Notes: generated by a model from the sequence alone, not told the origin. DNA of 63,633 nt from Bacteroidota bacterium (GCA_029781095.1 JAKOXM010000302.1:1-63633); one strand, 5' to 3'; positions 19,700-47,700 are shown, counted from the first letter of the stretch. Program-made: numbers and translations.

Positions 19700-21798
19700 C
19701 AGTTATTTACCGGTAAAAACGAATACTCTTTCCCGTAGCGCAGCATTTGCTGCACAAAATCGGTTTCCGTTTCCACTTTTATGTCGGTGATCTTGCCGGA
19801 AGCGTCTTTTACGGGCACGAGTCTGGGTTGTACGAATCCGGAATACGCTTTGGTCGGCAGCGCCGCGTAGCGATCTTTGACCTGCTTCCCGATGGCGGCA
19901 TCGGTCTTGACGCCGTAATTTTCTACCAGATCATGCGCCGCTTTGGAGTCGCCTTCCGATTTGATGCGTTGGATTTCGGAGAGCAGCTGGCCGAACAGCT
20001 CGCGTAGTTTGGCGTAATCGCGTATGTCGTAGTAGGTTTTGCCATTGCGCTCATTTCGCACGATCACGTTGTCCTTTTTACCTTTTTCGAAGGCCCAGGC
20101 TGCCACGAGCTGGCGGTTGCGCATGTGGTCTTCCTCGATATCGGCGCCGGGCGGCAGGCGGCGAAGCTGCTGCAGAAGGCCGTTGCGGATATAGTTGTCG
20201 TATTCCGCCTTGAAGGCATTGGCGTCGGGCATCAGCCCCCACTCCACGAGTTTCGGGTCGGGCATGAAGTAGAGCGCTACCAGATCGGCGCGGCCTTCTT
20301 CAAGGGTGCTGGCATATTGACCAAGGGTAACGTTGGGTTCCGCGACGGTGTCTTTGAGTTTGCCGCTGGCGTGGCCGATCACTTCGTGCAGGGCCGTGTG
20401 CATTTTGCCGCATGCTTCTGCGTACTTTTTTGCGTTTTCAATTTCCTCCGCGTCGTTGGCGAATTCGGCCGTGGCCAGCGCTCCGCCGGCTTTGTTGTAG
20501 GCGTTCTCGATGTTGTTCAGGCTGATGGACTTGGAGCCGTATAGTTCGCGCACCCAGTTGGAATTGGGCAGATTGACGCCGATGGGTGTGCTGGGAGCGC
20601 AGTCACCGCCTTCCATGGCTACATTGATAACGCGGTAGGACACGCCCTGCACGTTTTTCTTTTTATAAGCGGCAGGAATAGTGCTGTTGTCTTCAAAATA
20701 CTGGGCGTTTTTGCTCACAATGGCCATTTTTTCCGTGGCGTCGGGGTCATTGTACTGTACGATGGCTTCCCAGTCGGCTTTGTAGCCTTTAGGGTCGTGA
20801 TAGACCTCAATAAAGCCGTTGATAAAGTCGATGGCGCTTTTGGTATCCTTTACCCATGCCATATTGAATTCGTCGAATTTGCGCAGATCGCCGGATTTGT
20901 AGTATTCCACCAGCAGGCCGATCGCCTTTTTCTGTTGGTCATTTTCGGCAAAGGGAATGGCTTTTTCCAGATTTTCCACGATCCTGGAGATCGCAGCGCC
21001 GTACATATTACCGGCGCCGGCTTTCCAGACCTGTTCGCTGAGCTTTCCCGATTGATCGCCGACGAGTTTGGAGTTCAGACCGAACGACGGCGGGTTGGAT
21101 CCGGCTGCTTTCAGCAGTTTATCGTAATAGGCATCGACCTGTGCGGCCGTGACGCCTTCGTAAAAATTCACCGCGGAGGTTTTCACGACATCCATGGTTT
21201 TGTCCTTGTTGGTCCGCTTTGCCATAAAACCGGGGTCAAAAAGAACCGGATTGAGTTTCACGATCAGTGCATTGGCATCTTCGCCGGCAAGCAGCGGCAG
21301 TTTCTTCGGGTCGGAATTTTGTACCAGGGTGGTGAAGTATTGTTTGGAGAATCCGGGTACGATCTTCAACTCGTTGTAGTGGTGGTGGATACCGTTGCTG
21401 AACCACACCCGCTTGGCATAAGTCTGAAACGCTTTCCAGTCGGCCGAAGCGCGGTCGCCCTTGTAACTGCCGAAAATACCTTCCAGGGTTTTGCGCACCG
21501 TGAGGTTGTATTTGCAATGCTGGTCATAAATGATGTCGCGACCGGCAAGCGTTGCTTCGGAGAGGTAATAGATAAACGTTTTCTGGCGCAGGTCGAGTTT
21601 GTCCCAACCCGGCAGATCGTAGCGGAGTATCTGCAGGTCGGCAAAAGTGTCGAGCAGAATTTTGTCATTATTGGAAAGGGCCGGCGGGGTGGCTGTCTTT
21701 GCAGTTGCGCCCGGTTTGGCAGCTTTCTGATCGCATGAAAGGATCAGCAAAGCGGCTGCGCAGCAAAAAAGCGCAGGGGAAAAAAGAGTATGCTTCAT
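19699..21798 (-). CDS. Peptidase family M49 (dipeptidyl-peptidase III-like), secreted or lipoprotein
   Basis: Zinc motifs HEVIGH and EEGRADL (HExxGH ... EExR(A/K)(E/D)). The signal peptide carries LILSC. Confidence 0.75.
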   Translation of the reverse strand: MKHTLFSPALFCCAAALLILSCDQKAAKPGATAKTATPPALSNNDKILLDTFADLQILRYDLPGWDKLDLRQKTFIYYLSEATLAGRDIIYDQHCKYNLTVRKTLEGIFGSYKGDRASADWKAFQTYAKRVWFSNGIHHHYNELKIVPGFSKQYFTTLVQNSDPKKLPLLAGEDANALIVKLNPVLFDPGFMAKRTNKDKTMDVVKTSAVNFYEGVTAAQVDAYYDKLLKAAGSNPPSFGLNSKLVGDQSGKLSEQVWKAGAGNMYGAAISRIVENLEKAIPFAENDQQKKAIGLLVEYYKSGDLRKFDEFNMAWVKDTKSAIDFINGFIEVYHDPKGYKADWEAIVQYNDPDATEKMAIVSKNAQYFEDNSTIPAAYKKKNVQGVSYRVINVAMEGGDCAPSTPIGVNLPNSNWVRELYGSKSISLNNIENAYNKAGGALATAEFANDAEEIENAKKYAEACGKMHTALHEVIGHASGKLKDTVAEPNVTLGQYASTLEEGRADLVALYFMPDPKLVEWGLMPDANAFKAEYDNYIRNGLLQQLRRLPPGADIEEDHMRNRQLVAAWAFEKGKKDNVIVRNERNGKTYYDIRDYAKLRELFGQLLSEIQRIKSEGDSKAAHDLVENYGVKTDAAIGKQVKDRYAALPTKAYSGFVQPRLVPVKDASGKITDIKVETETDFVQQMLRYGKEYSFLPVNN

Positions 21799-29937: not shown

Positions 29938-30001
29938 GATATAGGTCCGTTTGCAATACGGATGGCGGACGCAAAAGTAGACATTGCCGCCAAATTCGGG
30001 T

Positions 30002-33000
30002 TCAATCTCCTTCCTTTTTTGCTTCGTTCAGTTTCAAAACATCTTTTCGGATCAGGCTGACTTTCCGTGCATTTTCAGGACTGAGTTTCAGCGTTTTTTC
30101 TATTTCCTTGAAGTCATCTTCAAAGACTTCCCGGAAGGTGGGGAAACGATTGTCTACCCATGCTCTTTCCAGATTTTCCGTGTAAAATGCCTTGGCTTTT
30201 TGATAGTCCTGTTCGGTTTTGCCGGAAAGCAGCATTGCGATGGCTTTATTGGAAATGATGCCGTTTTTTTCTTCATTTTCCGAGGGCACGGCCAGCCCCG
30301 CGTCTGCGGCTTCCAGCCCGGCACGGAAATCGCCGCTTAATATGACGTACCAGGAATAATTCCAGTAGGCGTTGTACAATTTTGTACGCGTGCGCTCCGA
30401 AAGCGGCTCCAGATCATAGGCTTTTTTTGTCAATTCGACTTGAGACAATGAATAAATGCTCGCTTCTTTATAGTTCTGGCTTTGTACAAAATGATCGGAC
30501 CGTGTGCTGAACAGGCTGGCATAATCAAGCCAGTCGTCCACAGTCGGATTTATTTTAGTCAATTTTCGGTAGAGGGAGTCGGTAGTTGCGAATAAATTGT
30601 TGTCTTCCGGCTGCTCCAGGCAACGGTTATAAAAATAATCGGCACAGTCGCGAATCTCTTCCATGTTGGATGAAAGCAAACACTCTTCGCCATCGTATTC
30701 AATATCGAACTTTTTTCGTTGATCGGCGGAAATGCGCGGGATCACTTTGCCGCGGGCGATCTCGCTGATCTGGTTGTGTATCAGTACCGGCCCGGTACGT
30801 TTGCCGAATACGACAATGCTGTCACTGGACAAAAATGCGGCATTCACAATTTCATCGTCATCAAGGCTGAACTGTTGCAGGCAATAAACCGCCTTTTTTT
30901 CAGCCGTGGCATCCCATAAAGATGCCCTGCCGCTGCCATCGATCGTGAGCAAATACCGGTCGTCGGGTGAAAAAACGATCTTTTGTTCGAAAGTTGAACC
31001 ACTAAGGGTTTTTATGGGCTTGCGTGTTCGGGTATCCCAAATTCTTACACCGCTCCAGCTACCGCCCGACGCGAACCGATCCTCATTATTTGAAAAGGCG
31101 ATGCTTTGAATCTCCCATATCTCCTTTATCCGTGATACTGCCGAATCGCCCGTACAATCCCACAGATAATCGTAGAATGTATAATTGCTGTCTTTAACGC
31201 TCAACAGCGCATATTGACCGGTTTGGGAAAATCTGGCAGCGGTGATGGGTAACCCGAAATTATGCTCATATACCTTTTCCAGACTGAAATCATTGTTCTT
31301 GCGATATATCCGCATATTTCCCCGGTCATCGGCGGCAAGCAGTTTTTGTTCATTTGCGGAAAAATGAACGGAAATAACCGAACCGGCAAATCGATCGAGC
31401 GTAACCGTATCGCGGGTATACGGGCCGATTCGGCCTAATTTGCCGTCCCTGCAACCAACGATGAAATACCGCTCGCCCGGCTGGACGATGTCGAAAGCGG
31501 TGATGCTGTCGCTTTTATCATAAGTATCCGCCTTATAGCGTATGGTATGAATGATCGAGTCCGGCAGTTGCCAAACGTTAAGTTGAAAGTCATCATCCAG
31601 CGTTGCCACCTTCTTTTCTTTTCCTGTTCTCAGGGGCAGGCCTTGCGTGATGGAACCAAGGTGCCCGCGCAAGGTTTTTATGACGGATAATTTTTTCATG
31701 TTCCACAGACGCGCCCGGCCGTCCGCCCCGGCCGACACCATCCGCGCGGTATTGCCGAGGCGGCGTATGTCATAGATATAGCCCAAATGTCCCGAATAGG
31801 TCAGCAATGAACTTCCGTTTGCCCAGGACTGAATGATTCCCAGGGAAGTGCCTGTTATGATGGTATCGCCGGTAAAGGAAAAATCTGCGGTATAGAAATC
31901 GCCGTATCCGGCATTGTATGGCAGCGAGAACAGCGAATCTCCTGCCGCGCTGAATACCTGCAAGGGCCCCTGACCATAACAGACCAGGAATTTTCTGCCG
32001 TCGCGGGAAAACCTCACGCAATTCACAGCGCCGGGAAACCGCAGCGTTTTGGTTAACCTGCCGTTGTAGGGGCTGATTTGCACGGTGGCGTCCCAACTGC
32101 CGGTAATGACGGTCTTCCCGTCAGACGACCAGTCTACCGTGCTGACGTATCCCTTGTGGGAAATGGTATTGACGAGATTACCCTCCAAAGTCCAGATTTT
32201 GGCGGTATTATCGTAGCTGCCGGTAATGAACTTGCTACCGTCCGGGGAGAAAGCCAGGGAGCGGACCGAAGAGTTGTGTTGGCCTTCCCAGTTGTGGAGG
32301 AGAAGGCCGTTTCGATCGAACAGCAGGAATATGCTGTTCCATAAACCGGCAATAATATGCTGCCCGTCTGCGGACCAGTCGACGGCAATTACCTGGTCGG
32401 AGGCTTTGTAGGTCCAGACGACTTTTCCGGTTTTTAAATTCCAGATTTTCAACATTTTATCCAATCCTCCTGTCACGATAAGACTGTCGCCGGGCCCGTT
32501 GGCGACGCTGACGATACCTTTATGGTGCGGCAGGTTTTCGAACAACTGGCTGTTTTCGAGCGGCCAGAAGCGGAGATTGCCCTCATAATCACCGGTTACG
32601 ATCAGGCTGTCTTTGGCGATAATCGCCGCTGACCGCCCGAAAATATCGTTATCCCAGTGCATCGTGGCCACACAATCGCCGTTTCGGTTCCAGATTTTCA
32701 GCGAACGGTCGGTACTCGCAGTAAAGACGAGGTCGCTGTTTTTGAAAAAACCGACCTGTCTCACATGATTGTCGTGACCTTTTAGTGTACGGATCACTTT
32801 TCGCCGTTTCAGATCCCAGATTTTGGCGGTGTTATCCGTTGCGCCGGTTATGAAGTAATCGCCGTCCTGGGAAAATGCAGCACAGATGACACTTTGGGTG
32901 TGTCCCGGATATTCCACTATTGCATTATTCCGGAGATCGATGAGCAAAACCTGAAAAGTACGAAGGCCCACCAGGACGTGATGCCCGTCTGGCGCAAATG

Positions 33001-33862
33001 CCACGCAATTGGGCATGGCTTCATTGGGTATTGAAATTATCTGCCGGATATGGAAGCCGCTGTCGATTTTTGCTACGACGACAGAAGAATTAAGCGCAGC
33101 AACGACCACGTCGCCCTCCGGAGAAATGGCGGCATCGCTAATCGGTTCGCCCAGATTAAGGGTTGCAAGGGTATCTCCTGCCAGATTCCACAGGACTAAT
33201 TCTCCGTTACTGTCTCCCGTAAGGAGTTTATCGCTGTTTGAGGAAAAAACAATGGCATTGACATATCCTGAGCTTGTATAATCTTCCGCCAGGTCAACCC
33301 AATCGCCTTTGGAACGGTCGTACAATTTGAAAGGATCGGACTGGCAACTTACGGCAATATAGCGATCGTCGGGTGAAGCGCTTAATGCCAATATCTTGCA
33401 CTTGCAATCTATGCTTACGCTGTAATATTTAGCATCCTTTTTCTCCAGTAATTTGCGGCGTATCCCGACCGCGAGCTCATTTTTATTCTTTGTAAAGCGG
33501 GAGGCTTCGTTGGCCAGCTGGAGGGCCAGGGTAGGATTCGCATCGGCGTTGTCCAGGGCTTTATTGGTGAGTTCGGCAATTTTTGCCTGTAATTTGAACT
33601 CAACGTTCTGTTTATCAATGTTGTTCTCTTCGACCTTGATGAGCGAGTCAAGCCGCAGGGATTCTTTTTCCGGCATGTCAAGGCATGCGCCGGCTGCCTC
33701 AAAATAATAAAGTGCCGCTTTATAATCGGCGCTTACGGTATCGGCGACAAGCCCCTTGCTCAGGAAGAACGTATAGCAATTCTCGGTACCGGCTGTCTGC
33801 GATTCAGCGCGATAACAGGCAAGGACGGACAGGACGGCAAGCAGGGTGATTTTTGTTCTCAT
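30002..33862 (-). CDS. Exported (lipobox) WD40-repeat protein with TPR-like N- and C-terminal helical regions
   Basis: [16 protein letters not shown] lipobox. About 20 WD40 units are visible, for example [96 protein letters not shown] and [28 protein letters not shown]. The last 270 aa or so are helical. Confidence 0.85.
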
Positions 33863-33869
33863 TGTAAAA

Positions 33870-35948
33870 TCATTTTTGGGTGTTGTGACATTTGCCCCAT
33901 ATCCGGTCGCGCTCCACGCTGGTTTTTTCGGGCAGTACCGCCAGAATCGGGTCTATTTTTTCCTGGATGATCCGGCTTGCCCAGCCGCAATCCTGGCCTT
34001 TCTCCAAAAAGGTGTTGGCGCGGCGGAGCAGGTCTTTCAGGTCTTCCCGCATATCGCGTTCACAGAGTTCAATCCCCTGTTTGGCTTTCTCAACGTCGAT
34101 GTCGAGTGCCTTTGCCTGCCCGTATAGCTTGTGTGCTTCGATATAATTGCGTTCGGCGCGGTGATTTTCGGCAGAACTGATCAGTTGTTCGAATTTTTCA
34201 AATTTCACGGCGCCTTCCCGGCATTGCTCGATCAGCGCGTGCAATTCGGGCGCGTTGCGCCTGGGCGTATCGATTGCCAGGCATTGAGCAAACTCGTTCA
34301 TGGCGCCTTTGTATTGCTTTTGGTCGAGGTAGAGCTTTCCCTGCTGGTAGTGCTGCACGTAGTTTTGCGCCAGAATGGTATCCTTGGCAGACTGGAGCTC
34401 AATAGCGAGGCCTTTCGCGCTGTCGCGCTGCAATTGCGCCACCCGCATCAGCGAGTCGGATGCCTGCCGGGCAATCTGAAGATCGATCTGTTGCTTTTGC
34501 AGGTCCCGTTTTTGGAAAAAAGCAAGCCCGGCCAATCCCAGTGCGATAACTGCGAGCCCGAATCCGGCAATGGAGCGATAGAAGTAAGCAACCCTTTCCC
34601 GCCGGATGCGTTCCTGCCGCTCGGCTTCCGCTTCACGCCGCCGGTTTTCGATCGCTTCAGCCGTTTGTGCTTTTTCCAGCTCTTCCGCCACCCTCAGTTT
34701 TTTCGCGTCCAGGATGGGCTCGACCAGCGAATCGTGGCTTATCTCATACACAAAGCTGCCGCTCGGGTGCATGTCCACGCGCAGGAGGTGATGTTCATTG
34801 ACGAGCCTGGCCAGGGTTTGTGCCTCCACCTGGTAGTTATTCAGAATCTGGCCTTCGAAAAGGCTCAGCCTGCGGAGTTCCTGTTCGAAGATCATTCCGT
34901 CTTCTATCATAAACCGCACTTTGTGCTGATCTTCTTCAAGCAGGGAGGCGATTATGCTATCGTAATAATTTTTATATATGCTTTTGATGTCGCCCAGTTC
35001 GGCCAGTTGTATTTCCTGGCCTTCGCGCTGAACGAGGTTGTTTTCAACATATTGGCAAATGACCTGCAGCTGAGTGGTTTCAACCGGCTTGGTATTTTGC
35101 TCGGTCAGGAAGTTGAGAATGGCTTCGAGGGTATCGCCCGAATACCGGAAGGAGGGTGTGGCAAAAAGCCCCGGTTCGCTTGCCGGCCTTAAAATGGCTT
35201 CCTGTGCCTGCGCCCGGTTGAGGGGGTTCAGTTCATAGCGATTTTTCAGAATGTTCGAATAATAAGGGGCAATCCGTTCCAGCAGGCTCAGGCGGTCGGA
35301 GCGAATACCCAGAACGATTTTCAGGGGCAGCGACTGGTGTATGAAATTGATTTGTTCGGCCCCTTCCGGCGTGGATTTTATGGCCGGAAGGTTTTTGTAA
35401 AACATTTCCCTGAAAGGGGCGGGCATTTTATTGTCCAGCAAATCGGCAAACTGGCGGATAAATTCCTGCACTTCGGGCTCCGGATAAGAAAAAATCTCTT
35501 CGAACTGGTCGAACACGACCACCAGCCCGGGCAAGCTCGAACGTTGATGCCACTGGATGGATTTGAACAGTTGCCAAAGCGTTTGTTTCTCCGGATCCGG
35601 TTGTACGGTGGACAGGAATACCGTTTCCTGCTTGGTCGACGGGTCGGTGGAATAGAAGCGCAAATGCGCGAGGATGCCTTTCAGCGGGCTGGAATGCTCT
35701 TTTTGGCTATAGGCATAGAAGCGGGGAAAAAGAGCAATGAGGCCTGCTCCGGTGAATTTCGGAACGACACCTGCATTGAGCAGCGACGTTTTTCCGAGAC
35801 CCGATTTGCCGTGCAAGACAGTGAGGTCGTTTATACTGATGGTTTGGTACAGATTGACGATATCCAGTTCGCGGCCAAAGAAAACCCTGGATTGCTCTTT
35901 GGCGAATGGCTGCGAACCGGGATACCGCTTCAGTGGTTTGTTTTCCAT
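33870..35948 (-). CDS. STAND-class P-loop NTPase (nSTAND-like) with a single TM helix and TPR-like C-terminal region
   Basis: N-terminal signature YPGSQPFAKEQSRVFFGRE. Walker A is LHGKSGLGKTSLL (DNA 35787-35810) and Walker B is GLVVVFDQFEE, followed by LGIRSDRL. The TM helix is FYRSIAGFGLAVIALGLAGLAFF (DNA about 34515-34583). The 214-aa helical tail contains YKGAMNEFAQCLAID and YIEAHKLYGQAKALD. The ATG at 35948 is preferred over 36041, which overlaps the upstream gene. Confidence 0.75.
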   Translation of the reverse strand: MENKPLKRYPGSQPFAKEQSRVFFGRELDIVNLYQTISINDLTVLHGKSGLGKTSLLNAGVVPKFTGAGLIALFPRFYAYSQKEHSSPLKGILAHLRFYSTDPSTKQETVFLSTVQPDPEKQTLWQLFKSIQWHQRSSLPGLVVVFDQFEEIFSYPEPEVQEFIRQFADLLDNKMPAPFREMFYKNLPAIKSTPEGAEQINFIHQSLPLKIVLGIRSDRLSLLERIAPYYSNILKNRYELNPLNRAQAQEAILRPASEPGLFATPSFRYSGDTLEAILNFLTEQNTKPVETTQLQVICQYVENNLVQREGQEIQLAELGDIKSIYKNYYDSIIASLLEEDQHKVRFMIEDGMIFEQELRRLSLFEGQILNNYQVEAQTLARLVNEHHLLRVDMHPSGSFVYEISHDSLVEPILDAKKLRVAEELEKAQTAEAIENRRREAEAERQERIRRERVAYFYRSIAGFGLAVIALGLAGLAFFQKRDLQKQQIDLQIARQASDSLMRVAQLQRDSAKGLAIELQSAKDTILAQNYVQHYQQGKLYLDQKQYKGAMNEFAQCLAIDTPRRNAPELHALIEQCREGAVKFEKFEQLISSAENHRAERNYIEAHKLYGQAKALDIDVEKAKQGIELCERDMREDLKDLLRRANTFLEKGQDCGWASRIIQEKIDPILAVLPEKTSVERDRIWGKCHNTQK

Positions 35949-36003
35949 AAAAGGGGTTTGACTCGTTATTTCAATGCACGGATAAAGGGGGCGAAACTTC
36001 TTG

Positions 36004-37134
36004 TCATTCCTGCGCAGGCCGGTTGCGCAGGTATTTGACAATATTGGAAAGCGAGCTGCGTATCAGGGCCATTTGTCTCGAATATGGATCGAAATCTATT
36101 TTGCCGAGGTTAAATTCGCGCTCAACGCCCGCAAGATTGCCTTCCTGCACAATGAGTTCCCCTTTGTCGATACCCCATCGGTCGGCCGCCTGAAGCAGTA
36201 GACTGATGGCCTCTTTCAATTCATCATTTCGTATGTGTTTTTCCACCTGATCGACCATCAGCCTTTTTATTTCTCCCGCATCCTGTATTCCGGCAGGTCC
36301 GGCGGGTCCGGGCTGGGCGGAGTGTTCGGATACCGATTTGTCCAGCTCTTTTATCAGCATCTCACTGTCTGCCTGCAGGACGATAAAAGTGGTGGAAAGC
36401 TTGTGCTCATTTTCAGGCTTCACAGGCGCGTCCTGCGTGAGAATGGAATAGTGCTCTTTTTTCGTATTCGTTCGGTCGTCTTTGTTGAGTTTGCGAATAA
36501 TAAGCGGCATATACCATTTGTCCAGATCGAAGCCGAGCAACATAAAGAATTTGGCTTCCTGCAGCACGAATTGCAGCGATACGGGCATTTGCATGTTATC
36601 GCTCAGCAGCGATACGAAAAACTTGAAAAAATCTTCATACGTAACGATCAGAGAATCCTGATTTCGGGCATCCCCGAACAGGTTGAAAAGATGCGTCACG
36701 TCGTCGGAAGATGTATTCGATGCGGGTGCATTGGGGTCTTTCGGGTGAAATTCGTGGGGAATTTTGAGGTTATCGAACGTTTTTTTCAGCATCAAATCCG
36801 GCGTGCAGGATATGATGGCCCTGAACGGAAGCCGGACGATCGTTTCATAAATTTCACCCGGTTCGAGGGACTGGTAATGTTCGGAAAGGTGCCAGCGGAG
36901 ATCCAGACTTCGCCCGGGATCGGGGTTTTTCAGGATAAAAAGATTATCGAAGTCATTGTCGATGTCTTTCAGCAGATCGGGCGCATTTTCTGAAAGGTAG
37001 TTCCGGACGCTGTCTCCCGCCGGAATTCCTTCCCGGGTGGTTCCAAAATGGGGTCCCAGAAAAAGAATAAATTTCTTCTCAAGGATATTTTTGGTGTGTT
37101 GCTTGATGAAGACGGAAATAGATTTGGTATCCAT
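36004..37134 (-). CDS. SIR2-fold-like (SIR2_2-like, apparently degenerate) protein with a C-terminal helical adaptor-like domain
   Basis: The block order resembles SIR2_2: KKFILFLGPHFG (versus lvlFlGAGvS), LPFRAIISCTPDLMLKKTF (versus viTTNYDdllE), THLFNLFGDARNQDSLIVTYEDF (versus vklHGs...lvlteedY), and FFMLLGFDLDKWYMPLIIRKL (versus lFlGySlsDpdl). A Pro/Gly linker follows, then a roughly 90-aa helical module ...IRNDELKEAISLLLQAADRW...GNLAGVEREFNLGKIDFDPYSRQMALIRSSLSNIV. Confidence 0.4.
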   Translation of the reverse strand: MDTKSISVFIKQHTKNILEKKFILFLGPHFGTTREGIPAGDSVRNYLSENAPDLLKDIDNDFDNLFILKNPDPGRSLDLRWHLSEHYQSLEPGEIYETIVRLPFRAIISCTPDLMLKKTFDNLKIPHEFHPKDPNAPASNTSSDDVTHLFNLFGDARNQDSLIVTYEDFFKFFVSLLSDNMQMPVSLQFVLQEAKFFMLLGFDLDKWYMPLIIRKLNKDDRTNTKKEHYSILTQDAPVKPENEHKLSTTFIVLQADSEMLIKELDKSVSEHSAQPGPAGPAGIQDAGEIKRLMVDQVEKHIRNDELKEAISLLLQAADRWGIDKGELIVQEGNLAGVEREFNLGKIDFDPYSRQMALIRSSLSNIVKYLRNRPAQE

Positions 37135-37192
37135 AAATTGGTTTTATGAGTAATGGCGCAAAGATTGTTCCCTGTTTTCAGGCAGGGGCATG

Positions 37193-37200
37193 CAAATGTA
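37193..37200 (-). promoter_or_regulatory. Candidate Bacteroidota -7 promoter element (TAnnTTTG) for the three-gene locus
   Basis: The minus strand reads TACATTTG, 59-66 nt upstream of the ATG at 37134 and downstream of the strong hairpin at 37253-37290. Confidence 0.25.
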
Positions 37201-37252: not shown

Positions 37253-37290
37253 AAAATCCCCGTTTGAGCATTAACTCAAACGGGGATTTT
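37253..37290 (-). terminator. Strong hairpin terminator after the TlpA-like gene
   Basis: aaaatccccgtttgag (37253-37268), loop cattaa, then ctcaaacggggatttt (37275-37290). This is a 16-bp perfect stem whose ends are A/T tracts. Confidence 0.75.
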
Positions 37291-37311: not shown

Positions 37312-38739
37312 CTATTCTCCGAAAATCTCCTTCAGTTTCTCTCCCAATTGTTCGCCGCGCAGGTTGCGGACGATGATCTTGCCTTCCCGGTCGATCAGCA
37401 GGGTTTGGGGAATGGACGTTACGGAGTAAAGGGCGGCGTGTTCGCTTTGCCAGCCTTTCAGATCGCTGATATGGTGCCACGGAAGGCCATCCTGCTGGAT
37501 CGCCTTGCGCCATGCGCTGATATCGCGGTCGAGGCTGACGCCGAGCACGTCGAAACCTTTGTCCTTGTATTTTTTGTAATTCTCCACCACGTTGGGGTTC
37601 TCCCGGCGGCAGGGACCGCACCAGCTGGCCCAGAAATCGACCATGACGATCTTTCCGCGCAGTTGCTTGAGGGAATAATTGCTGCTGTCGGGCGTCATGC
37701 CGATGAGGTCGGGCGCTTCGAAACCGGGCATGAAGGTGCCGGCTTTCTTGATGTCGTATTCCAGTCGGGCCACTTCACCCAGGCTGTTGTTGCGGTACAA
37801 ATTGAGATAGTCTGATGTATAGGCCGTGCACAACTGGCCGTTGGTGGTTTTCAGTCCCGAGATAGCGCCGCCGAGCGCCATGCGGTATGCTTTCGATTTT
37901 GCCGGTATCTGCGACAATTGCAGATCGATTGCCTGCTTTACTTTTTCCGAAGAGGCGGCGATCTGCGCGAGATACGTGACGTATTTTTCAAAACTGTTGA
38001 AAACGTCGGGGATATTATCGAAACCGGTGCTGTTGAAATCGGCGTTGCGGAAATAGTTTTTTGTGTAAAAGTCAACTTCGGTTGTGGCCGCCGATTTTTC
38101 TGCAAGGTACTCCGGCGTAATATACAGGCTTGCCATGCGCCACAGCATCGGATTGGCTGTTTTCAACGAATCGAGATACCTGCTCTTCGACTTGGCCAGC
38201 TGTTTGATGCTTTCTTCCACGGGTGTGCGCGCGACAGCGCCCAGGTTTCCATCCGAATTATAGTATTTGGTGCGCAGCACCTCGCTTTCCGATTGAAAAT
38301 CGGCAATCTGCCGCTGTACGTTTTCCAGGGCTTTGTTGGCGGGCGAATTGACCGTGCGGCCTTTTTCCATAAAATTGCAATTGGCCCAGAGCGTCACTTC
38401 CTTCTCCTGCCCGAGCACGACCTTCGCCATTGCGTTGTCGCCCAGTCCGACGCCGTAAAAACGCGGATCGGACATGGGTATCCGGAACACGAAAGCACTG
38501 TCGGGCATACGGCGGCCGGCGCGTGCCACCACCCGGTTGGCCAGGCCAAGCATCTCGTACAGATTGACGCTGTCCGTATTGGCGGGTACGCCCCATATTT
38601 TGCAGACAAGCGTGACTTTATCGTTGGCGGCAGCGGCGGTAGCAGCCGCTTTAGGTGCCGGTGTGCGCGTTTTGGCGGTTTTCTGAGCCTGCAAGGCAAG
38701 CACGGGAAGCAGGAACAGTAGAATAAGCAGTTTTTTCAT
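37312..38739 (-). CDS. TlpA-family thiol:disulfide oxidoreductase (thioredoxin fold) with a long N-terminal domain
   Basis: Signal peptide and C-terminal thioredoxin domain VMVDFWASWCGPCRRENP. Confidence 0.85.
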   Translation of the reverse strand: MKKLLILLFLLPVLALQAQKTAKTRTPAPKAAATAAAANDKVTLVCKIWGVPANTDSVNLYEMLGLANRVVARAGRRMPDSAFVFRIPMSDPRFYGVGLGDNAMAKVVLGQEKEVTLWANCNFMEKGRTVNSPANKALENVQRQIADFQSESEVLRTKYYNSDGNLGAVARTPVEESIKQLAKSKSRYLDSLKTANPMLWRMASLYITPEYLAEKSAATTEVDFYTKNYFRNADFNSTGFDNIPDVFNSFEKYVTYLAQIAASSEKVKQAIDLQLSQIPAKSKAYRMALGGAISGLKTTNGQLCTAYTSDYLNLYRNNSLGEVARLEYDIKKAGTFMPGFEAPDLIGMTPDSSNYSLKQLRGKIVMVDFWASWCGPCRRENPNVVENYKKYKDKGFDVLGVSLDRDISAWRKAIQQDGLPWHHISDLKGWQSEHAALYSVTSIPQTLLIDREGKIIVRNLRGEQLGEKLKEIFGE

Positions 38740-38866
38740 GTTAGAATCAAGATCAACAAGTTCTGAATGTGTTTACAGGCGGGGTTTTTCAGAAAACAGC
38801 GCAAAATTACGTCTTTTGTCACCGCTCAGGCAGGGTTGAAACGTTAACAAGCGCTTAAAATGGGAA

Positions 38867-40791: not shown

Positions 40792-40987
40792 TTTGTCAAA
40801 ATGCGAACATTCTTTTGTAATATTTACCGGGCGGCATGGTGGTTTTACTATCATTGCAGCCATTTTCAATTGAGTCCTTGACCAATAAAATAATCGAAAA
40901 CTCGGAGAATTCGGGCGGAGCCAGTGAGAAATGATGAATTCCTCGCCATCTGTTGCGCTCAAATGCACACTTTTTAACTACTGTTCT

Positions 40988-43900
40988 ATGGTACGTTCTT
41001 TACTCTTAACTTTTGCTTTGCTTCTCAGTGCCGGAGCCGTGCTTGCCCAAACCGTGTTGTCGGGCAAGGTGTCGGGCGACGACGGTGAGGCGCTTATTGG
41101 GGCAACCGTCAAAGTGTTGCGCGGCGCCGACTTTGTGCGCGGTACGATTACCGATTACGACGGCAATTACCGGGTAGCCCCGCTGGACCCCGGCACGTAC
41201 GATGTGGAAATTTCATACACGGGTTTTGCTGTACAGCGGATTACCGGTGTGAAAGTGCTCACAAACCAGATCACCTTTCTCGACGCCACGATGTCCAGTA
41301 ATACGGTCATTCAGGGTGTGGAAGTGACGGCGTTCAAGGTGCCCCTGATCGAACAGGATAAAACATCGGGCGGTCAGACGCTCACATCCGACCAGATCAA
41401 AAACCTGCCTACCAGAAGCGTAAACGCCATTGTAGCCACCACTGCCGGCACCACGTCCATTGACGGCGGCGCGGTGAACATCAAAGGCTCGCGCTCCAAC
41501 GCCACCAACTATTATATCGACGGTATTCGCGTGTCGGGCTCTTTGCCGCCGGTACAGGATATCGAGCAGTTGCAGGTGATCACAGGCGGTCTCGGCGCCG
41601 AGTACGGCGACGTTACGGGCGGTGTCATCTCCCTGATCACCAAAGGCCCGGCCGGCGAATACCACGGCGGCATCGAGGTGGAAAACTCCCACGGCCTCGA
41701 CCCCTACGGATGGCTGCTCGCGACGGGCAACCTCAGCGGACCGATCTGGAAAAAGAAATTTGAAGACGGCTCGTCGCGCACGGTCGTCGGTTTCCGTCTG
41801 TCGGGACAGTACTGGACCCAGAAAGACGACAGCCCCTCGGCACTTCCGGTTTACAAGGCAAAACCGGACGTCGAAGCGCGCCTCGTCGAGCACCCGTTGT
41901 CCAAAATCAACGGAAATATCGTATCCACCGCCGAATCGTTTACGAATGACAGCGTGGATGTGCTGAATTACCGCCCGAACGAAAATCGCAAGGATCTGGA
42001 CCTGACGGGAAAACTGGACTTCCGGCTGGCGGATAATGTTGATTTCAGCGTAACCGGTACGTTCAAGGACCAGCAGGACAAATTTACGCCCGGAGGCTGG
42101 CGTTTGCTCAACTCTGATAACAACCCTACGAACTACGGACGCCGGTACCGCGGAATCGCACGCTTCCGCCACCGCCTCGGCAGTTCGGACAACAGTGGTA
42201 GCGACGCCAACCGCGTGAGCATTTCCAATGCAAACTATCAGTTGCAGCTGGGTTTTGAACGCGCCGACAATCATACATATGACCCGCGCCATGAAGACCG
42301 GCTCTTCGAATACGGTTATATCGGACGTTTTAAAGTCGATCTTATGCCGATTGCCGGTCCGGATGATACCGGAAACAAATATATACACCTGGGTAATCTC
42401 GAATCCTTTGCCGGCTTCGAACCTGGTTATGTCAACAGTGCCGGACAATTGGTCAATCCCAACCCGGGATTGAACGCCTACAATGAATTTGCGCTGACCG
42501 ATCTCGGAAACCCCGGCGCGGCATTCAACTCCTACCTCGCGCAGAACGGTCGTTTTTCTACCGTATATGACGATATCTGGAGCGGTATGCACAGCAATAC
42601 CAGTCTGGTCTATAACAGCTATACCAGAAGCCAAAGCGATGTTCTTACCATTACGGCCACCGCGGGCTTCGACCTGAGACTCGGCCGTTCCGGTACGCAC
42701 AGCATCCAGTTCGGTCTGCTTAACGAGCAGCGCACCGACCGCAGTTATGGCGTAGCGCCATTCGGCCTGTGGGCGCTTGCCAACCAGTCTATCAACGAAC
42801 ATTTCAACGGCCTCGATTCCACCAAGGTAATCGGGAAGTTTTTCTGGCCGCAGATTCAGGACTCCGTAGACCGCTACGCATATTCCATTCTGAGTGCTGA
42901 CAAACTGGGCGATGACAAGTTTTACAAGAAAGTCCGGGAAGGACTCAACGTGCCCATCGAGACCTGGCTTAACTCGGACGAACTGACCCCCGAGCAACTG
43001 AGTCTCGGCATGTTCTCCGCACGTGAATTAAATGACCAGGGCTATGTGGGTTACTACGGCTATTCCTACACGGGTGAAAAGCTCGCACAGAACGTCACGT
43101 TCAACGACTTTTTTACCAGCAGGGACGCCGATGGCATCCGTGATTTTCCGGTGGCTCCGCTCCGCCCGCTGTACCAGGCCGCTTTCATCAAGGACAAATT
43201 CACGTTCAACAAGATGATCTTCAGCCTTGGTCTGCGCGTCGAACGTTTTGACCTGAATACCAAGGTGATGCGTGATCCGTACTCTTTATACAAGGTTGCT
43301 ACGGCAAAGGAATACTATGCACAGAATTCCGCCCCGCCCCGCCCCGCCAATGTTGGCGATGACTTTAAAGTGTATATCGAAGGGCAGAACGATCCGTCAC
43401 CAAAGGCCTTCCGCAACGGTGATACCTGGTATTTTGCCGACGGTCGCCAGGCCAATGACGGTAACCTTATTTTCGGCGGCGGTGTCGTGACGCCCCTGCT
43501 CAGCGATACCATCTCGGGCGACAATATCTTCGATACGCGTTTCGATCCCAACACGGCGTTTGAAGACTACACCCCGCAGGTCAACTGGCTGCCCCGTCTG
43601 GCGTTCTCTTTCCCGATCTCGGAAGATGCCAACTTTTTTGCGCACTACGATATCCTCGTGCAGCGCCCGCCGAGCAGCTGGCAGGTGACGCCGCTGGACT
43701 ATATGTACTTCTACACGCCAAACCGCACAACGTCCAACAATGCCAATCTGAAGCCGGAACGCGTGGTGGATTATGAAGTCGGTTTCCAGCAGAGGCTCAA
43801 TCAAAACTCGGCGCTCAAATTTTCGGCCTACTACCGCGAAATGCGCGATATGATCCAGAGTCGCACCATCCTGTACGTGCCGACGATCGGCCAATACGAG

Positions 43901-44626
43901 ACCTCGGGCAACATCGACTACGGCACTGTGAAAGGGTTTACCGTACAGTACGACCTGCGCCGTATTCAGAATGCAGAATTGCGTCTGGCATATACCCTGC
44001 AATTCGCAGACGGTACGGGCTCCAATGCCACTTCGCAGCGCGGCCTCACCTCACGCGGCAATATTCGCGCGCTTTTCCCCCTCGATTTCGACGAGCGGCA
44101 TAACCTGAATGCCATCCTCGACTATCGTTTTGACGAAGGGAAGCGCTACAACGGACCTCGTGTTGCCGGTAAAGACATTTTGTCCAACTTCGGCGTAAAT
44201 ATCCAGGCCTACACAGTTTCCGGACGTCCGTACACGGCCAAGCAACGCTCCATCCGTTTCGGCGGCGAAGGCACCCTCGGTGCCATCAACGGCAACCGGC
44301 TGCCATGGCGTTTCAACATCGACCTTCGTGTGGACAAAACCTTTAACCTGGCATCAGAAGGTAAAAACCCGCTCAACCTCAACGTATACTTCCGCGTGGC
44401 AAACCTGCTCAATCGCAAGAACATCATCGGGGTTTACTCCGCTACGGGTTCTCCGACGGACGACGGTTACCTGGCAACTGCAGAAGGCCAAACGATCGTG
44501 CAAAGTATCGCAGATACGGGTCGCAATTCGGAGGCATTCCTGGATGCATATTCCTGGGTGGTGCGCAACGGCGGCAACTTTACACAACCGCGCCGCCTGT
44601 ATGTAGGCGCTGTATTCGGGTTCTGA
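40988..44626 (+). CDS. TonB-dependent-receptor-like outer-membrane protein with an N-terminal CarboxypepD_reg domain
   Basis: Signal MVRSLLLTFALLLSAGAVLAQ. CarboxypepD_reg region LSGKVSGDDGEALIGATVKV...DYDGNYRV. Plug-like region QIKNLPTRSVNAIVATTAGT...IKGSRSNATNYYIDGIRV. The terminal sequence is VGAVFGF, ending in an aromatic residue. Confidence 0.75.
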   Translation: MVRSLLLTFALLLSAGAVLAQTVLSGKVSGDDGEALIGATVKVLRGADFVRGTITDYDGNYRVAPLDPGTYDVEISYTGFAVQRITGVKVLTNQITFLDATMSSNTVIQGVEVTAFKVPLIEQDKTSGGQTLTSDQIKNLPTRSVNAIVATTAGTTSIDGGAVNIKGSRSNATNYYIDGIRVSGSLPPVQDIEQLQVITGGLGAEYGDVTGGVISLITKGPAGEYHGGIEVENSHGLDPYGWLLATGNLSGPIWKKKFEDGSSRTVVGFRLSGQYWTQKDDSPSALPVYKAKPDVEARLVEHPLSKINGNIVSTAESFTNDSVDVLNYRPNENRKDLDLTGKLDFRLADNVDFSVTGTFKDQQDKFTPGGWRLLNSDNNPTNYGRRYRGIARFRHRLGSSDNSGSDANRVSISNANYQLQLGFERADNHTYDPRHEDRLFEYGYIGRFKVDLMPIAGPDDTGNKYIHLGNLESFAGFEPGYVNSAGQLVNPNPGLNAYNEFALTDLGNPGAAFNSYLAQNGRFSTVYDDIWSGMHSNTSLVYNSYTRSQSDVLTITATAGFDLRLGRSGTHSIQFGLLNEQRTDRSYGVAPFGLWALANQSINEHFNGLDSTKVIGKFFWPQIQDSVDRYAYSILSADKLGDDKFYKKVREGLNVPIETWLNSDELTPEQLSLGMFSARELNDQGYVGYYGYSYTGEKLAQNVTFNDFFTSRDADGIRDFPVAPLRPLYQAAFIKDKFTFNKMIFSLGLRVERFDLNTKVMRDPYSLYKVATAKEYYAQNSAPPRPANVGDDFKVYIEGQNDPSPKAFRNGDTWYFADGRQANDGNLIFGGGVVTPLLSDTISGDNIFDTRFDPNTAFEDYTPQVNWLPRLAFSFPISEDANFFAHYDILVQRPPSSWQVTPLDYMYFYTPNRTTSNNANLKPERVVDYEVGFQQRLNQNSALKFSAYYREMRDMIQSRTILYVPTIGQYETSGNIDYGTVKGFTVQYDLRRIQNAELRLAYTLQFADGTGSNATSQRGLTSRGNIRALFPLDFDERHNLNAILDYRFDEGKRYNGPRVAGKDILSNFGVNIQAYTVSGRPYTAKQRSIRFGGEGTLGAINGNRLPWRFNIDLRVDKTFNLASEGKNPLNLNVYFRVANLLNRKNIIGVYSATGSPTDDGYLATAEGQTIVQSIADTGRNSEAFLDAYSWVVRNGGNFTQPRRLYVGAVFGF

Positions 44627-44730
44627 TATAAACAGAGCATCTTTGCATTCAACCGAGTTAAAGACTGGACGGAAAATTTTGAACCCGGGTCTTTGCTAAA
44701 CAGTTAAAAAAAAATAAAAAAATTAATAAC

Positions 44731-47700
44731 ATGCGTACTTACAGACTTTGGATAGCAGCTTTGCTGGCCAGTATTGCCTGGAGCGGAGCCTTTGCGCACG
44801 CACCGGTCGGTGCGAGTCGGCCGAGCAAAACCAACAAAGTAAAATACCGCGATGTGTGTGCCAACTCCGAGGATCAGATCGATCAGGAGATCAACAACGT
44901 GCGTGCCCGTTTGCTGGGCGGCGGCGACTGCTGGTGGGACTTTAACGACGGTCGTTACATCGTTCCGAAGGTAGATCCGGCCTCCGGTCAGCGCGAGGTT
45001 TCTTCCATTTTCGCCGGCTCGGTATGGCTCGGCGGACTTGACCCTGCCGGCAACCTGAAACTGGCATGCCAGGACTATCGTGCCGGTGGTAAAAACGACT
45101 TCTGGCCCGGCCCGCTCAACGAACTCGGCCTTACCGAGCGCGCTATTTGCGACAACTGGGACCGTCACTTTCGCGTCACCGGCAATGAGGTTCGCCGCCA
45201 CCTGGCAAACCTGTCTGAAGGCCGCCTCGACCCGGCCGATATTCCGCGCGGTGTGAAAGGCTGGCCTGCACGTGGCAATCCTTATTTCGTGGATGTATGG
45301 GGTTTTGACCTCCCTTACACCCAACAGGGACTTGCCGGCTTTTTCGATGCTGACGGCGACGGCGATTATGATCCGCTTAAAGGTGATTATCCTTCTATCG
45401 ATATCCGGGGATGTCCGCTTGACCGGTACCCGGATGAGATGATCTTCTGGATTTACAACGACCAGGGCGGTGGCGCCGAACACGCGCGTACGCAAGGCGA
45501 TGCGATCCAGATGGAAGTTCAGGTGCAGTCATTCGGCTACGTCACCACCGACGAACTGAACGATATGACGTTCCAGCGCTACAAACTGATCAACCGTGCC
45601 ACGGCACGTATCGACTCCACGTTCTTTGCCATGTGGGTCGACCCTGATCTGGGCTGCTATACGGATGACTATATCGGTTGCGATACGACGAAAAACCTGA
45701 TGTACGTGTACAATCAGGATGCTACAGACGGCCAGCCGGGCTGTAACTGCGACCAGGGCGTGGCAACCTATTGCGACAAAATTCCGATTCTTGGCGTCGA
45801 CTATTTCCGCGGACCGCTGGATACTTTCGCCAACGAGATCGGTATGTCCTCGTTCGTTTATTATAACAACCCCGGCGTAGGCAACCCGCTCCCCGGTACC
45901 ACGGACCCGGATTTGCCGGCTGAGTTTTATAATTATCTTACGGGTACGTGGCGCGACGGCTCCCCCTTCCAGTTTGGTGGAAGCGGATATCAAAGCGGTG
46001 GCGCTACTATTAAATACGCCTTCCCCAACCCTCCGGGCGACCAGACCGGTTGGTCGATGTGTACGGCAGGTCTGCCATACAGCGACCGCCGGACCCTTCA
46101 GGCTTCCGGACCCTTCTCGCTGAAACCCGGCGCCGTCAACGAGCTGATCATCGGTGTGCCGTGGGTACCGGATATCACGTATCCATGCCCCGATCTGGAA
46201 GGCTTGTTCCGCGCCGACAAACTGGCCCAGGGCTTGTTTGACAACTGCTTCGAACTGCTCGATGGTCCGGACGCTCCGAATGTGGACTGGATCGAACTGA
46301 ACCAGGAGATCATTGCGGTACTGACTAACGTTGCGCCGTCAAACAACCTTAATGAGCAATACCGGCAGCAGGACTTTCTCGCACCCGATGTTTTGAAACA
46401 AAGCACCGACTCGGCTGTACTGGAAAGCACCTACTACAAGTTCGAGGGATACAAGATTTACCAACTGTCAGACCCGAACGTGTCGAACGCCGAGTTTGAA
46501 ACGAACCCGGACAAGAGCCGGATCGTATACGAGGTGGATCTCAAAAATAAAGTGAGCAAGGTGTATAACTGGATTGAAGCGCTGGATCCGAACTCGGGCA
46601 ACAAGGTCTACTTCCCGGAATTAAAAGTTGAAGGAGAGGACAAAGGTATCCGCCACACTTTCAAAATTTCTGACGACAAGTTTGCCCTCGGTAATGACAG
46701 GCGGCTGATCAACCACAAAAAATATTACTTCGCAGTCATTGCCTATGCCTATAATAACTGGGGTGTTTTCGATCCTCTTGCATCACCGGCTACCGGCCAG
46801 CAGCGCCCCTACCTGCCGGGTCGCAGAGGCTCCGACGGCGGCCAGGTGGAGATCATTACAGTGATCCCGCGTCCTGTCGTCGATCAGTCGCTTCAGTCTG
46901 CTTATGGCGACGGCGTTGTGATAACCCGTTTGGAAGGGGCAGGGGCAGGCGGCCAGTTCCTCGATCTGGATGATGCTACCCGCGACGCGCTTTGGTCCGG
47001 TGCGCTCACCGGCGACACTGTGCTGACGTACAAACTGGGCCACGGCCCGCTGGCTGTTACCATCTTCAATCCTTTCGAGGTAAAAGACGGTGACTACGAG
47101 CTGAGCATTGTCGACAGTGACCTGGGAGACACCAAACTGGATAAAAATGCGCGCTGGCAATTGCGGAAACTGCCCGACGGGCCGGTAATTGCCTCTGACA
47201 GAAGTATCGAAACGGTAAACGAGCAGATATTCGCCGATTACGGGTTCTCCGTTACCGTGGCACAAACCGCCGCCCCGGGCAGTAATAACGACGACCGCAA
47301 CGGCGCTATCGGCGGCGAGGTCAGTTACACGAACCCCGATGAGCAGTGGTTACTGGGGTTCCCGAACCAGGATCTCGGCTTTTTCAACTATGTGAAAACG
47401 AGTTCCATCGCACAGCCCGATTATGATCCCGACGGCGACGGCATACCAATGGATCCGAAGCAGGGCCTGAGTACGATCGGCAACGGCTGGTTCGTACCTT
47501 ATACCCTGTGCGACTGGCGTTTGTCCGCTCTCAGCCCGACCCAAAGGATGATCACGCCGGCCTGGACTGAAAAAGGCGGCTCATCACAAGGGCAGCTGAA
47601 CAACAGCGCCAACGGCAGTGAAACGACGCGACGCGCCAAACTCGCTGCCTTGCCCAACGTGGATATCGTCCTTACCAAGGACAAATCCAAGTGGAGTCGT

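Follow-up and report, generated by a model that had tools for sequence, protein, structure and literature searches.

Predicted conflict systems built from an nSTAND1 nucleoside triphosphatase (NTPase), a transmembrane helix (TM) and a β-propeller are among the closest described relatives of the locus reported here. The locus is a trio of minus-strand genes, named g1, g2 and g3 in the order of transcription, at 30002-37134 of a 63,633-nucleotide stretch of DNA from a Bacteroidota bacterium (GCA_029781095.1 JAKOXM010000302.1:1-63633). The whole stretch is called the window below. The nSTAND1 systems are listed by Kaur, Iyer, Burroughs & Aravind (2021, eLife 10:e70394) in Figure 2-source data 1. 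The label TM+BetaPropeller occurs 280 times in the text of this source data, and the displayed examples are all nSTAND1+TM+BetaPropeller. The label nSTAND1+TM+TPR occurs 22 times, and nSTAND1+TM+TPR+TPR is also listed. Genes for TIR+DrHyd, TIR or caspase are often found upstream of the nSTAND1+TM entries. The nSTAND1+TM+BetaPropeller systems are predicted and appear in the supplementary tables only; the main texts treat nSTAND1 briefly, and in a 2026 preprint on the classification of defence STANDs, nSTAND appears only as the name of a clade. A second group comprises the EAD-coupled NTPase conflict systems (Kaur et al., 2020, eLife 9:e52696; PMC7159879). EAD adaptors are defined there by a constant core with an interchangeable effector, or with an EAD in the place of the effector (PMC7159879, section 30). 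In the 2021 source data, EAD11 is present only on LRR+AP-GTPase+COR proteins of Haliscomenobacter.

The trio resembles the systems of Kaur et al. (2021) in the NTPase family, the cytoplasmic position of the NTPase, the one transmembrane helix, the extracytoplasmic repeat sensor and the effector or adaptor gene located immediately upstream. In contrast to those systems, the propeller of the window is not fused to the NTPase. It is a separate secreted protein of 1286 residues, and the NTPase keeps a TPR-like ectodomain of about 200 residues. Neither the combination SIR2+EAD11 nor a split secreted propeller was found in the text and supplements of Kaur et al. (2021), whose label DrHyd may stand for the same domain as SIR2_2-like. 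An earlier note on this DNA, made from the sequence alone, had not recognised the combination as a characterised defence system. PADLOC also gives no characterised system that matches, but the fused nSTAND1+TM+BetaPropeller architecture has already been listed hundreds of times, and to this extent the novelty is smaller than the note implied. New here are the split sensor and the SIR2-like/EAD11 adaptor; the predicted fused architecture is already catalogued.

Like the EAD-coupled systems, the trio carries a small helical adaptor at a protein terminus beside an NTPase core, and it probably belongs to the Saprospiraceae/Haliscomenobacter lineage. Two related loci (L014 and L009 in the numbering of our survey) have two EAD11 genes each. 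In the window, on the other hand, the EAD11 at the terminus of g1 has no second copy on the NTPase or on any neighbour within 63.6 kb. The catalogued EAD11 accompanies AP-GTPases, whereas that of the window goes with nSTAND1 and a SIR2-like domain. The tail of g1 being EAD11, the framing as an Aravind-type NTPase conflict system with an adaptor, proposed in the earlier note, fits the locus.

Avs proteins are single cytosolic polypeptides which bind phage proteins in the cytoplasm. The trio shares with Avs and other bacterial NLR-like proteins a STAND NTPase, a repeat sensor and an effector class directed at NAD, and Avs4 is among the fold matches of g2. It differs from them in that it is split into three genes, g2 spans the membrane, the sensor is periplasmic and the SIR2-like domain has no catalytic residues. 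An analogy may also be drawn with the Toll-like receptor and MyD88, where an extracytoplasmic repeat sensor, a single membrane pass and a helical adaptor recruiting TIR or death-type effectors homotypically are combined. The sensor and the membrane protein are not homologous to those of the Toll-like receptor, however, and the membrane protein of the trio carries a STAND NTPase.

The reading we favour, with a probability of about 0.55, is that the trio is one transcription unit and encodes a trans-envelope receptor of the nSTAND1 class, gated by nucleoside triphosphate (NTP) and split over three polypeptides. The central protein would be the product of g2 (33870-35948), which has 692 residues when counted from the ATG of MENKPLKRYPG. 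The listing of its open reading frame (ORF) reaches a TTG at 36041; the ATG was adopted, and the closest homologues likewise have 692 residues. The Pfam family nSTAND1 (PF20703) matches residues 9-411 with an E value of 3e-29 and a score of 103.5 bits against a cut-off of 27.1. The segments RYPGSQPF and FFGRE, the Walker A motif GKSGLGKT and the Walker B motif VVVFDQFEE are all present, and G50, G52, K53, D147, Q148, E150 and E151 are invariant across 22 relatives. These results agree with the nSTAND-type NTPase named in the earlier note. The profile, both Walker motifs and the helical and winged-helix parts that follow the NTPase in STAND and ORC/Cdc6 proteins are thus all found in g2. PADLOC gave nothing significant for g2 and no Avs-type match.

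The AlphaFold2 (AF2) model of g2 has a predicted local distance difference test score (pLDDT) of 85 overall, and of about 90 for the NTPase module and for the ectodomain. In the model, the NTPase with its helical and winged-helix parts extends to about residue 405, a long helix covers residues 406-457, a hydrophobic helix covers residues 460-478, and a helical domain continues to residue 692. The closest folds are PAB2304, ORC2/Cdc6 and Avs4, at TM-scores that are low because of the shorter length of the targets. According to Pfam and AF2, residues 1-415 (34704-35948) correspond to the cytoplasmic nSTAND1 NTPase and its helical and winged-helix parts. The stalk at residues 406-457 is an Arg-rich coiled coil ahead of the transmembrane helix. 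The single transmembrane helix IAGFGLAVIALGLAGLAFF is placed at residues 460-478 (34515-34571) by its hydropathy (2.33), the orthologues and the AF2 model. Residues 479-692 (33873-34514) form the extracytoplasmic helical TPR-like domain, according to the alignment, a custom hidden Markov model (HMM), Pfam and AF2. Its cysteines are semi-conserved, the domain is restricted to this clade, and Pfam TPR_2 is matched at residues 533-560. One transmembrane helix is located at the equivalent place in all 8 NTPase orthologues, followed by a Cys-containing ectodomain of about 200 residues, and a helix no more than 160 residues past the NTPase module is found in 63 of 69 metagenomic relatives. The membrane-spanning character given to the second gene in the earlier note is borne out by both sets. 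The g2 protein is thus predicted to have a STAND NTPase in the cytoplasm, in which the Walker motifs are intact, then a stalk of the coiled-coil type and a single membrane-spanning helix, and in the periplasm a TPR-like domain.

Gene g3 (30002-33862) encodes 1286 residues. From the orthologue alignment, residues 1-21 (33800-33862) are assigned to a Sec signal peptide with a probable signal peptidase I cut between AES and Q. An N-terminal hydrophobic segment is present in all 7 g3 orthologues and ends in A or S and then Gln, which indicates signal peptidase I. The earlier note had described an exported lipoprotein. Export is supported by the signal peptide in all the orthologues and by the conserved paired cysteines, but the lipid anchor is not. 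The lipobox residue Cys16 is present in only one of the 7 orthologues, that of the window itself; the L001 orthologue, which is 74% identical, reads LSVLTHFSAAAQ there. As this cysteine is not conserved and the ends of the signal peptides favour signal peptidase I, the lipoprotein assignment was rejected, and g3 is probably not a lipoprotein.

Behind the signal peptide, residues 22-150 (33413-33799) form an N-terminal helical module with Cys29 and Cys60, as delimited by conservation and hhalign. Residues 160-1013 (30824-33385) contain about 21 WD40 blades, which probably make three propellers (Pfam, iterated HMM), and residues 1014-1286 (30005-30823) form a C-terminal helical domain of about 270 residues, recognised from the conservation profile. 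The Pfam WD40 family is matched with an E value of 1e-70, and other propeller families are matched as well. The iterated repeat HMM detected 19 blades between residues 163 and 1013, and the gap at 721-829 fits about two more, in line with the count of about 20 given before. The N-terminal module and the C-terminal domain have no Pfam match. All 7 orthologues have Cys29 and Cys60, 6 of the 7 have Cys1061 and Cys1073, and three more cysteine pairs are mostly conserved. This conservation of cysteine pairs fits an oxidising compartment. The g3 protein is thus predicted to be secreted to the periplasm, with its propellers between two Cys-containing helical modules. By hhalign, the N-terminal module is similar to a part of the g2 ectodomain, with a probability of 89% and an E value of 2e-6. 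BLASTP between this ectodomain and the termini of g3 gave no match, so that the relation is seen by profile-profile comparison alone. This likeness may represent a periplasmic counterpart of homotypic adaptor coupling.

Gene g1 (36004-37134) encodes 376 residues. Residues 1-255 (36370-37134) correspond to a SIR2_2-like Rossmann domain according to Pfam, the ThsA alignment and the family tables, and residues 288-372 (36019-36273) to EAD11, a four-helix effector-associated adaptor, according to Pfam and the AF2 model. Pfam SIR2_2 is matched at residues 113-245 (E 6e-10, 39.7 bits against a cut-off of 24.5) and Pfam EAD11 (PF19964) at residues 295-369 (E 5e-10, above the gathering score). The four helices of EAD11 are modelled with a pLDDT of 84-90. 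The earlier description of a SIR2_2-type Rossmann domain plus a helical tail of about 90 residues is therefore supported by Pfam in both parts, and the tail is EAD11. The AF2 model of the whole protein was calculated from 7 sequences and is poor, with a pLDDT of 61 and with residues 173-284 below 50, and indicates the fold class only.

The closest sequence and fold relatives of the N-terminal domain are ThsA (Thoeris), DSR2, SIR2-HerA and KomC. The nearest sequences in the PDB are ThsA proteins (ThsA homologue 7uxt, E 6e-5), and the best PDB fold matches are ThsA, KomC, DSR2 and SIR2-HerA, at TM-scores of about 0.3 from the poor model. PADLOC gave weak matches to the SIR2 parts of ThsA and LmuA; the ThsA match (E 1.7e-6) covers residues 4-234, the SIR2 part only. 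Unlike these proteins, g1 has no catalytic Asn, no catalytic His, no GAG loop and no SLOG or other sensor domain, and has a C-terminal EAD11 instead. In comparison with ThsA, the Asn site reads SCTPD (Thr111) instead of TTNYD, with the Asp (D113) kept, the His site reads NLFG (Phe153) instead of KLHG, and the NAD-binding loop reads LGP (Gly27-Pro28) instead of GAG. Thus g1 agrees with the catalytic SIR2 proteins and the defence sirtuin NADases in fold and profile, but not in the His, the Asn or the GAG loop. A Thoeris system is not indicated, as neither a SLOG domain nor a TIR gene was found in the window by Pfam and PADLOC. The term degenerate SIR2 used in the earlier note is apt, since the canonical catalytic residues are absent from g1 and from its family. 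We describe g1 as a predicted cytoplasmic protein in which a SIR2-like domain without the canonical catalytic His and Asn is joined to EAD11.

The order SIR2-like, nSTAND1-TM, secreted propeller was found in nine further independent loci, mostly with different flanking genes, at NTPase identities of 33-87% to g2. The identities are 87% for L001, 46% for L002 (= L011), 41% for L003/L004 and 40% for L005, and, among the distant loci, 34% for L006/L007, 34% for L008 and 33% for L009. The flanks of L001 are the same as those of the window, and those of L003/L004 are different. Two loci of Saprospiraceae metagenome-assembled genomes (MAGs), L010 and L012, also show the trio order. The first gene of the order encodes SIR2_2, either alone or together with EAD11. 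At the third position, the closer group has one WD40 protein of 1286-1316 residues and the distant group a secreted set of a Kelch protein, a protein of 284-294 residues and a WD40 protein of 538-579 residues. Every downstream propeller, Kelch or accessory protein examined has a signal peptide. Co-localisation in other genomes had been proposed in the earlier note as a check, and the nine loci supply it. The recurrence of the order, the single box of promoter type, the strong hairpin ahead of g1 and the spacing of 55 and 7 bp within the trio support the view that the three genes form a conserved unit. A scan of GTDB genomes with an alignment of 5 sequences of g1 and its relatives gave 3 loci, all in Saprospiraceae MAGs; its patterns are clade-specific, so this number is a lower bound.

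Two of the loci have neighbours of their own. In L003 (1-3940; also in L004), a second, differently split system is located 5 kb upstream of the triad. It is made of an nSTAND1 fragment, a 368-residue protein with a transmembrane helix and a g2-type ectodomain (custom HMM, E 2e-27), and a secreted WD40 protein of 932 residues. In L006, a Cas6b gene (20395-21111) lies 9 kb downstream of the system and is the only defence-related neighbour in any locus.

The first two genes recur more widely. A metagenome scan seeded by the NTPase motifs alone confirmed at least 431 relatives, and the best 80 were kept. In 70 of these 80 loci, a SIR2-like domain is encoded upstream on the same strand and ends 193-1435 nucleotides before the NTPase domain. 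Eight of the 10 exceptions have less than 720 nucleotides of upstream sequence and only 2 have 1 kb or more, so that the SIR2-like domain is present in 70 of the 72 loci that can be evaluated. The SIR2-like/nSTAND1 dyad thus appears to be general. The ectodomains past the transmembrane helix vary and are of the WD40, BNR plus PDZ or Sel1 type, or are unrecognised. Such variability is typical of a sensor. In L014 and L030, nSTAND1, the helix and WD40 are one protein, and L022, a sampled relative with no detectable transmembrane helix, has TPR repeats instead.

On the side of g1, a word-indexed search found 7 proteins only, and an exhaustive profile search was needed to reveal the family, with 1382 clusters at 50% identity (E <= 1e-3), 889 of them at E <= 1e-10. 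A search of a set of 5.8 billion proteins with the EAD11 profile returned one protein, the domain being too short for a database of that size. In the 154 top representatives of the family, the site of the His is occupied by F, L or Y and in no case by H, and that of the Asn by S or T in 130 of 154. G27-P28, D113, N151, G154, S161 and W207-Y208 are near-invariant in the SIR2-like clade, K206 is also strongly conserved, and N151 is replaced by His in the TIR-fused relatives. The domains joined to the SIR2-like module are EAD11 in the clade of the window and, elsewhere, a C-terminal TIR, an N-terminal TIR, CHAT, a nucleotide cyclase or none that is recognisable. The C-terminal TIR occurs in six representatives and six sampled loci. 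Our own TIR HMM under-detected this domain: it found 11 loci, against Pfam TIR in 7 of 10 sampled upstream genes. CHAT is joined in P0207, where nSTAND1 is directly downstream, and the nucleotide cyclase in L036. L030, L015 and L016 have a His-less SIR2-like protein with no recognisable second domain. From this survey the SIR2-like domain appears to be the constant module and the partner domain the variable part. A SIR2-like domain with variable partners matches the pattern by which EAD adaptors were defined (PMC7159879).

Several loci show how the modules may be connected. L014 (7339-12361) encodes TIR+EAD11, then SIR2-like+EAD11, then the fused nSTAND1-WD40 protein; two EAD11 proteins are encoded next to each other, in agreement with the EAD principle. 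The system of L009 is bordered by an EAD11-TM protein and a CHAT protein. L013 (8001-11477) encodes a protein of 1158 residues composed of nSTAND1 and two SIR2-like+EAD11 units. Its neighbours are genes for AAA (MoxR-like), vWA and three caspase/CHAT proteins, the context of a ternary conflict system. As a separate observation, L096 (707-2644) encodes a 645-residue SIR2_2+EAD11+SIR2_2 protein with no nSTAND1 gene within 6 kb, so the SIR2-like+EAD11 module also occurs apart from the NTPase.

The absence of the catalytic His in 154 of 154 representatives, the constancy of the SIR2-like domain, the variation of its partners and the fusion with nSTAND1 in L013 together indicate that g1 is more likely an adaptor or coupling subunit than an effector. 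The earlier note had proposed a SIR2 effector candidate; the SIR2-like identity stands, and the effector role is put in doubt by the constant SIR2-like domain and the variable partner. Canonical SIR2 motifs are found upstream of nSTAND1 in L040 (921-2003) and L049 (3518-4435). TTNYD/TTNFD and KLHG are present in both, and a GAG-type loop is visible in L049. These two loci suggest that the ancestral gene was an active SIR2, and an ancestral SIR2 effector may have become a coupling module.

It is unlikely, though worth weighing, that g1 is itself the effector: an unusual NAD+-consuming or ADP-ribosylating enzyme of the SIR2 type, switched on when the NTPase oligomerises, with EAD11 driving its self-assembly. 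The Pfam SIR2_2 score above threshold and the defence NADases ThsA, KomC, DSR2 and SIR2-HerA as best PDB matches in sequence and fold speak for it, as do the canonical SIR2 proteins at the same position in L040 and L049, whose ancestor was plausibly an active effector. The conservation of D113, N151, S161, K206 and W207-Y208 suggests a functional pocket, and the His-less proteins of L030, L015 and L016 have no recognisable second domain. The catalytic His and Asn residues are required in ThsA and DSR2, and PDB entry titles name H171A mutants. In g1 and its family, however, none of the representatives has the His, S or T mostly stands in place of the Asn, and G-P is found instead of the GAG loop. 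Moreover, the His-less members are usually joined to TIR, CHAT, a cyclase or an adaptor, which would be unnecessary if the SIR2-like domain were the effector. The opposite view, that the domain is a mere dead pseudo-enzyme, was rejected as going too far, since polar residues particular to the clade are invariant in it.

From this anatomy and its conservation we infer the interactions and the output of the split trans-envelope receptor as follows. The WD40 protein g3 would dock on the ectodomain of g2, possibly through the related TPR-like modules, and would act as the ligand-binding sensor; many relatives carry the propeller fused right after the transmembrane helix. The signal of a periplasmic ligand would pass through the helix and the stalk, and the NTPase would oligomerise in an NTP-dependent manner on the inner face of the membrane. 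The g1 protein would couple to the NTPase and be clustered via its SIR2-like domain. Clustered EAD11 would then recruit or activate EAD11-tagged effectors homotypically; TIR-EAD11 of L014 and EAD11-TM-X of L009 are examples of such proteins. The EAD11-tagged effectors, if they exist, would be encoded outside the 63.6-kb window. The output is likely to be self-damage, directed at NAD+ or nucleotides or proteolytic, or else signalling, and a filamentous Saprospiraceae lineage would in this way respond with immunity or programmed death. A more specific form of the mechanism is tentative and clearly less probable. It describes an NLR-like receptor sensing outside the cytoplasm, with the periplasmic WD40 protein acting in trans, a membrane STAND, an ex-SIR2 adaptor resembling MyD88, and TIR or caspase effectors recruited by EAD11 and encoded elsewhere.

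Several observations weigh against the favoured mechanism. A custom EAD11 HMM applied to all six-frame ORFs of the window matched g1 alone, and no EAD11 partner or recognisable effector was found in g2, g3 or the window, so the output step is unsupported for this genome. The NTPase of g2 carries no EAD11, and thus the contact between g1 and the NTPase is inferred from adjacency and one fusion only. The AF2 model of g1 is poor (pLDDT 61), and the similarity between g3 and the g2 ectodomain is modest (hhalign 89%). The SIR2-like domain may bind a ligand or catalyse an unusual reaction, as the strong conservation of D113, N151, S161 and W207 leaves room for. Finally, the locus differs from typical mobile defence systems in having no defence island, no viral relatives and a fixed site.

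The wider flanks of the trio encode PEPCK, proline dehydrogenase, TrhO, a TlpA-like protein, 2-hydroxyacid dehydrogenase and PorV. The 10 neighbouring proteins have no PADLOC match, and Pfam assigns housekeeping families and no defence families to the flanking ORFs. No known defence or mobile-element gene is found among the flanking ORFs, and no relatives were found in the viral contigs searched. In the window, L001, L002, L010 and L012, the trio occupies the same site by the TlpA-like and 2-hydroxyacid dehydrogenase genes. In L001, the identity is 74% for g3 and 86-87% for g1 and g2, and the neighbours are 80-89% identical. In L002, L010 and L012, the identity of g3 is only 30-36%, while TlpA and 2-Hacid_dh reach 55-78%. 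These comparisons indicate that the locus is resident, chromosomal, vertically inherited and fast-evolving, and not a mobile island. The defence context assumed in the earlier note is not upheld: the site is fixed across Saprospiraceae, no island surrounds it, the viral contigs gave no relatives, and the check for residence in a defence island, proposed in the same note, gave no defence genes in the flanks by PADLOC or Pfam. An immune function of the trio is suggested by its domain content. As a side observation, two very large ORFs (1231 and 1355 residues) with no PADLOC match lie at 40931-48798, upstream of the PorV-like gene.

These features of the site bear on another reading, which we regard as about as doubtful as an enzymatic g1. 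Here the trio would serve resident envelope signalling of a non-immune kind in filamentous Saprospiraceae, reporting the state of the periplasm or cell wall, or contact with prey or kin, with an output via EAD11 partners. The fixed site in five loci, with identities that track those of the neighbours, indicates vertical inheritance and suits such a function, as do the housekeeping flanks (PEPCK, proline dehydrogenase, TrhO and TlpA) and the lack of a PADLOC match in the 10 surrounding proteins and of relatives on viral contigs. Phage proteins are expected to be few in the periplasm, to which the sensor is exposed, and genes for extracytoplasmic function (ECF) sigma factors adjoin the system in L002 and L005. 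The partners TIR, CHAT/caspase, cyclase and canonical SIR2, on the contrary, are the standard effector repertoire of conflict and cell death, and in L013 the module is part of a ternary system with MoxR, vWA and caspase. In addition, g3 and g1 evolve faster than the flanking genes, and conflict systems are the setting in which nSTAND1 and EAD were defined as families (PMC8195603, PMC7159879).

It is very improbable that g3 is an unrelated neighbour, adjacent by chance or sharing a transcript with a system of g1 and g2 alone: the dyad of g1 and g2 occurs much more widely than the triad and the third position differs in L006, L008 and L009 (Kelch, a 284-residue protein, a smaller WD40), but a secreted propeller follows the NTPase in 9 of 9 further loci despite different flanks, the g2/g3 gap is 7 bp, relatives have the propeller fused past the transmembrane helix, and the propeller proteins share a Cys-flanked N-terminal module resembling the g2 ectodomain.

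To our knowledge, the bacterial STAND or NLR-like immune sensors that have been characterised all recognise their triggers in the cytoplasm. The nSTAND1-TM/SIR2-like family is predicted to put a repeat sensor beyond the inner membrane, and it is abundant, with 889 clusters at 50% identity for the profile of the SIR2-like partner and at least 431 NTPase relatives. Should the trio prove to be a switch for immunity or death, it would reveal how danger signals from the periplasm or the exterior are coupled to TIR, caspase or NAD-directed outputs. If g1 is an adaptor, it would clearly illustrate how an enzymatic effector, SIR2, can be converted into a module for docking. The NLR-like trans-membrane receptor, if real, would parallel the Toll-like-receptor logic in a prokaryote, and no STAND immune sensor would have been shown to act across a membrane before it. 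The split form with three proteins is convenient, since sensor, switch and adaptor can be separately expressed and mutated. The interest is tempered because the fused architecture is already catalogued and the locus holds no identifiable effector. The host of the window is probably a member of the Saprospiraceae. This is a largely filamentous family. A filamentous host would fit the enrichment of such conflict systems in multicellular bacteria, as reported in PMC7159879.

The transcription signals of the trio were read from the DNA. The spacing is 55 bp between g1 and g2 and 7 bp between g2 and g3, and the coordinates confirm three co-directional minus-strand genes as described in the earlier note. 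The immediate neighbours encode a TrhO-like rhodanese and a TlpA-like thioredoxin; both housekeeping families named before were found in the flanking ORFs. The TlpA-like gene upstream of the trio ends at 37312. A hairpin with a perfect 16-bp stem and a 6-nucleotide loop is located at 37253-37290 on the minus strand, 22 nucleotides past the stop of that gene. Its folding energy is -31.6 kcal/mol (z -7.7), and none of 200 shuffled sequences was equally stable. The terminator reported earlier at this place is thus confirmed in its stem, and the hairpin is predicted to insulate the trio against upstream transcription. The box TACATTTG at 37193-37200 (minus strand), 59-66 nucleotides before the ATG of g1, matches TAnnTTTG, the Bacteroidota -7 promoter consensus, as also noted previously. 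TAnnTTTG is not enriched across the window (34 found, 31 expected), and the support for the box as a promoter is therefore its position alone. It is the only minus-strand copy in 30003-37200, and the g1/g2 and g2/g3 junctions contain no minus-strand copy. Between the stop of g3 and the start of trhO (29938-30001), no significant hairpin or terminator was found (fold z -0.45), so transcription may continue from the trio into trhO, which has a box of its own, TACTTTTG, at 29972-29979. More than 10 copies of TAnnTTTG in the window stand in the sense orientation 25-70 nucleotides before start codons. Examples near starts are located at 38802, 29972, 25136, 24194, 12545 and 7810, and this placement fits Bacteroidota promoters.

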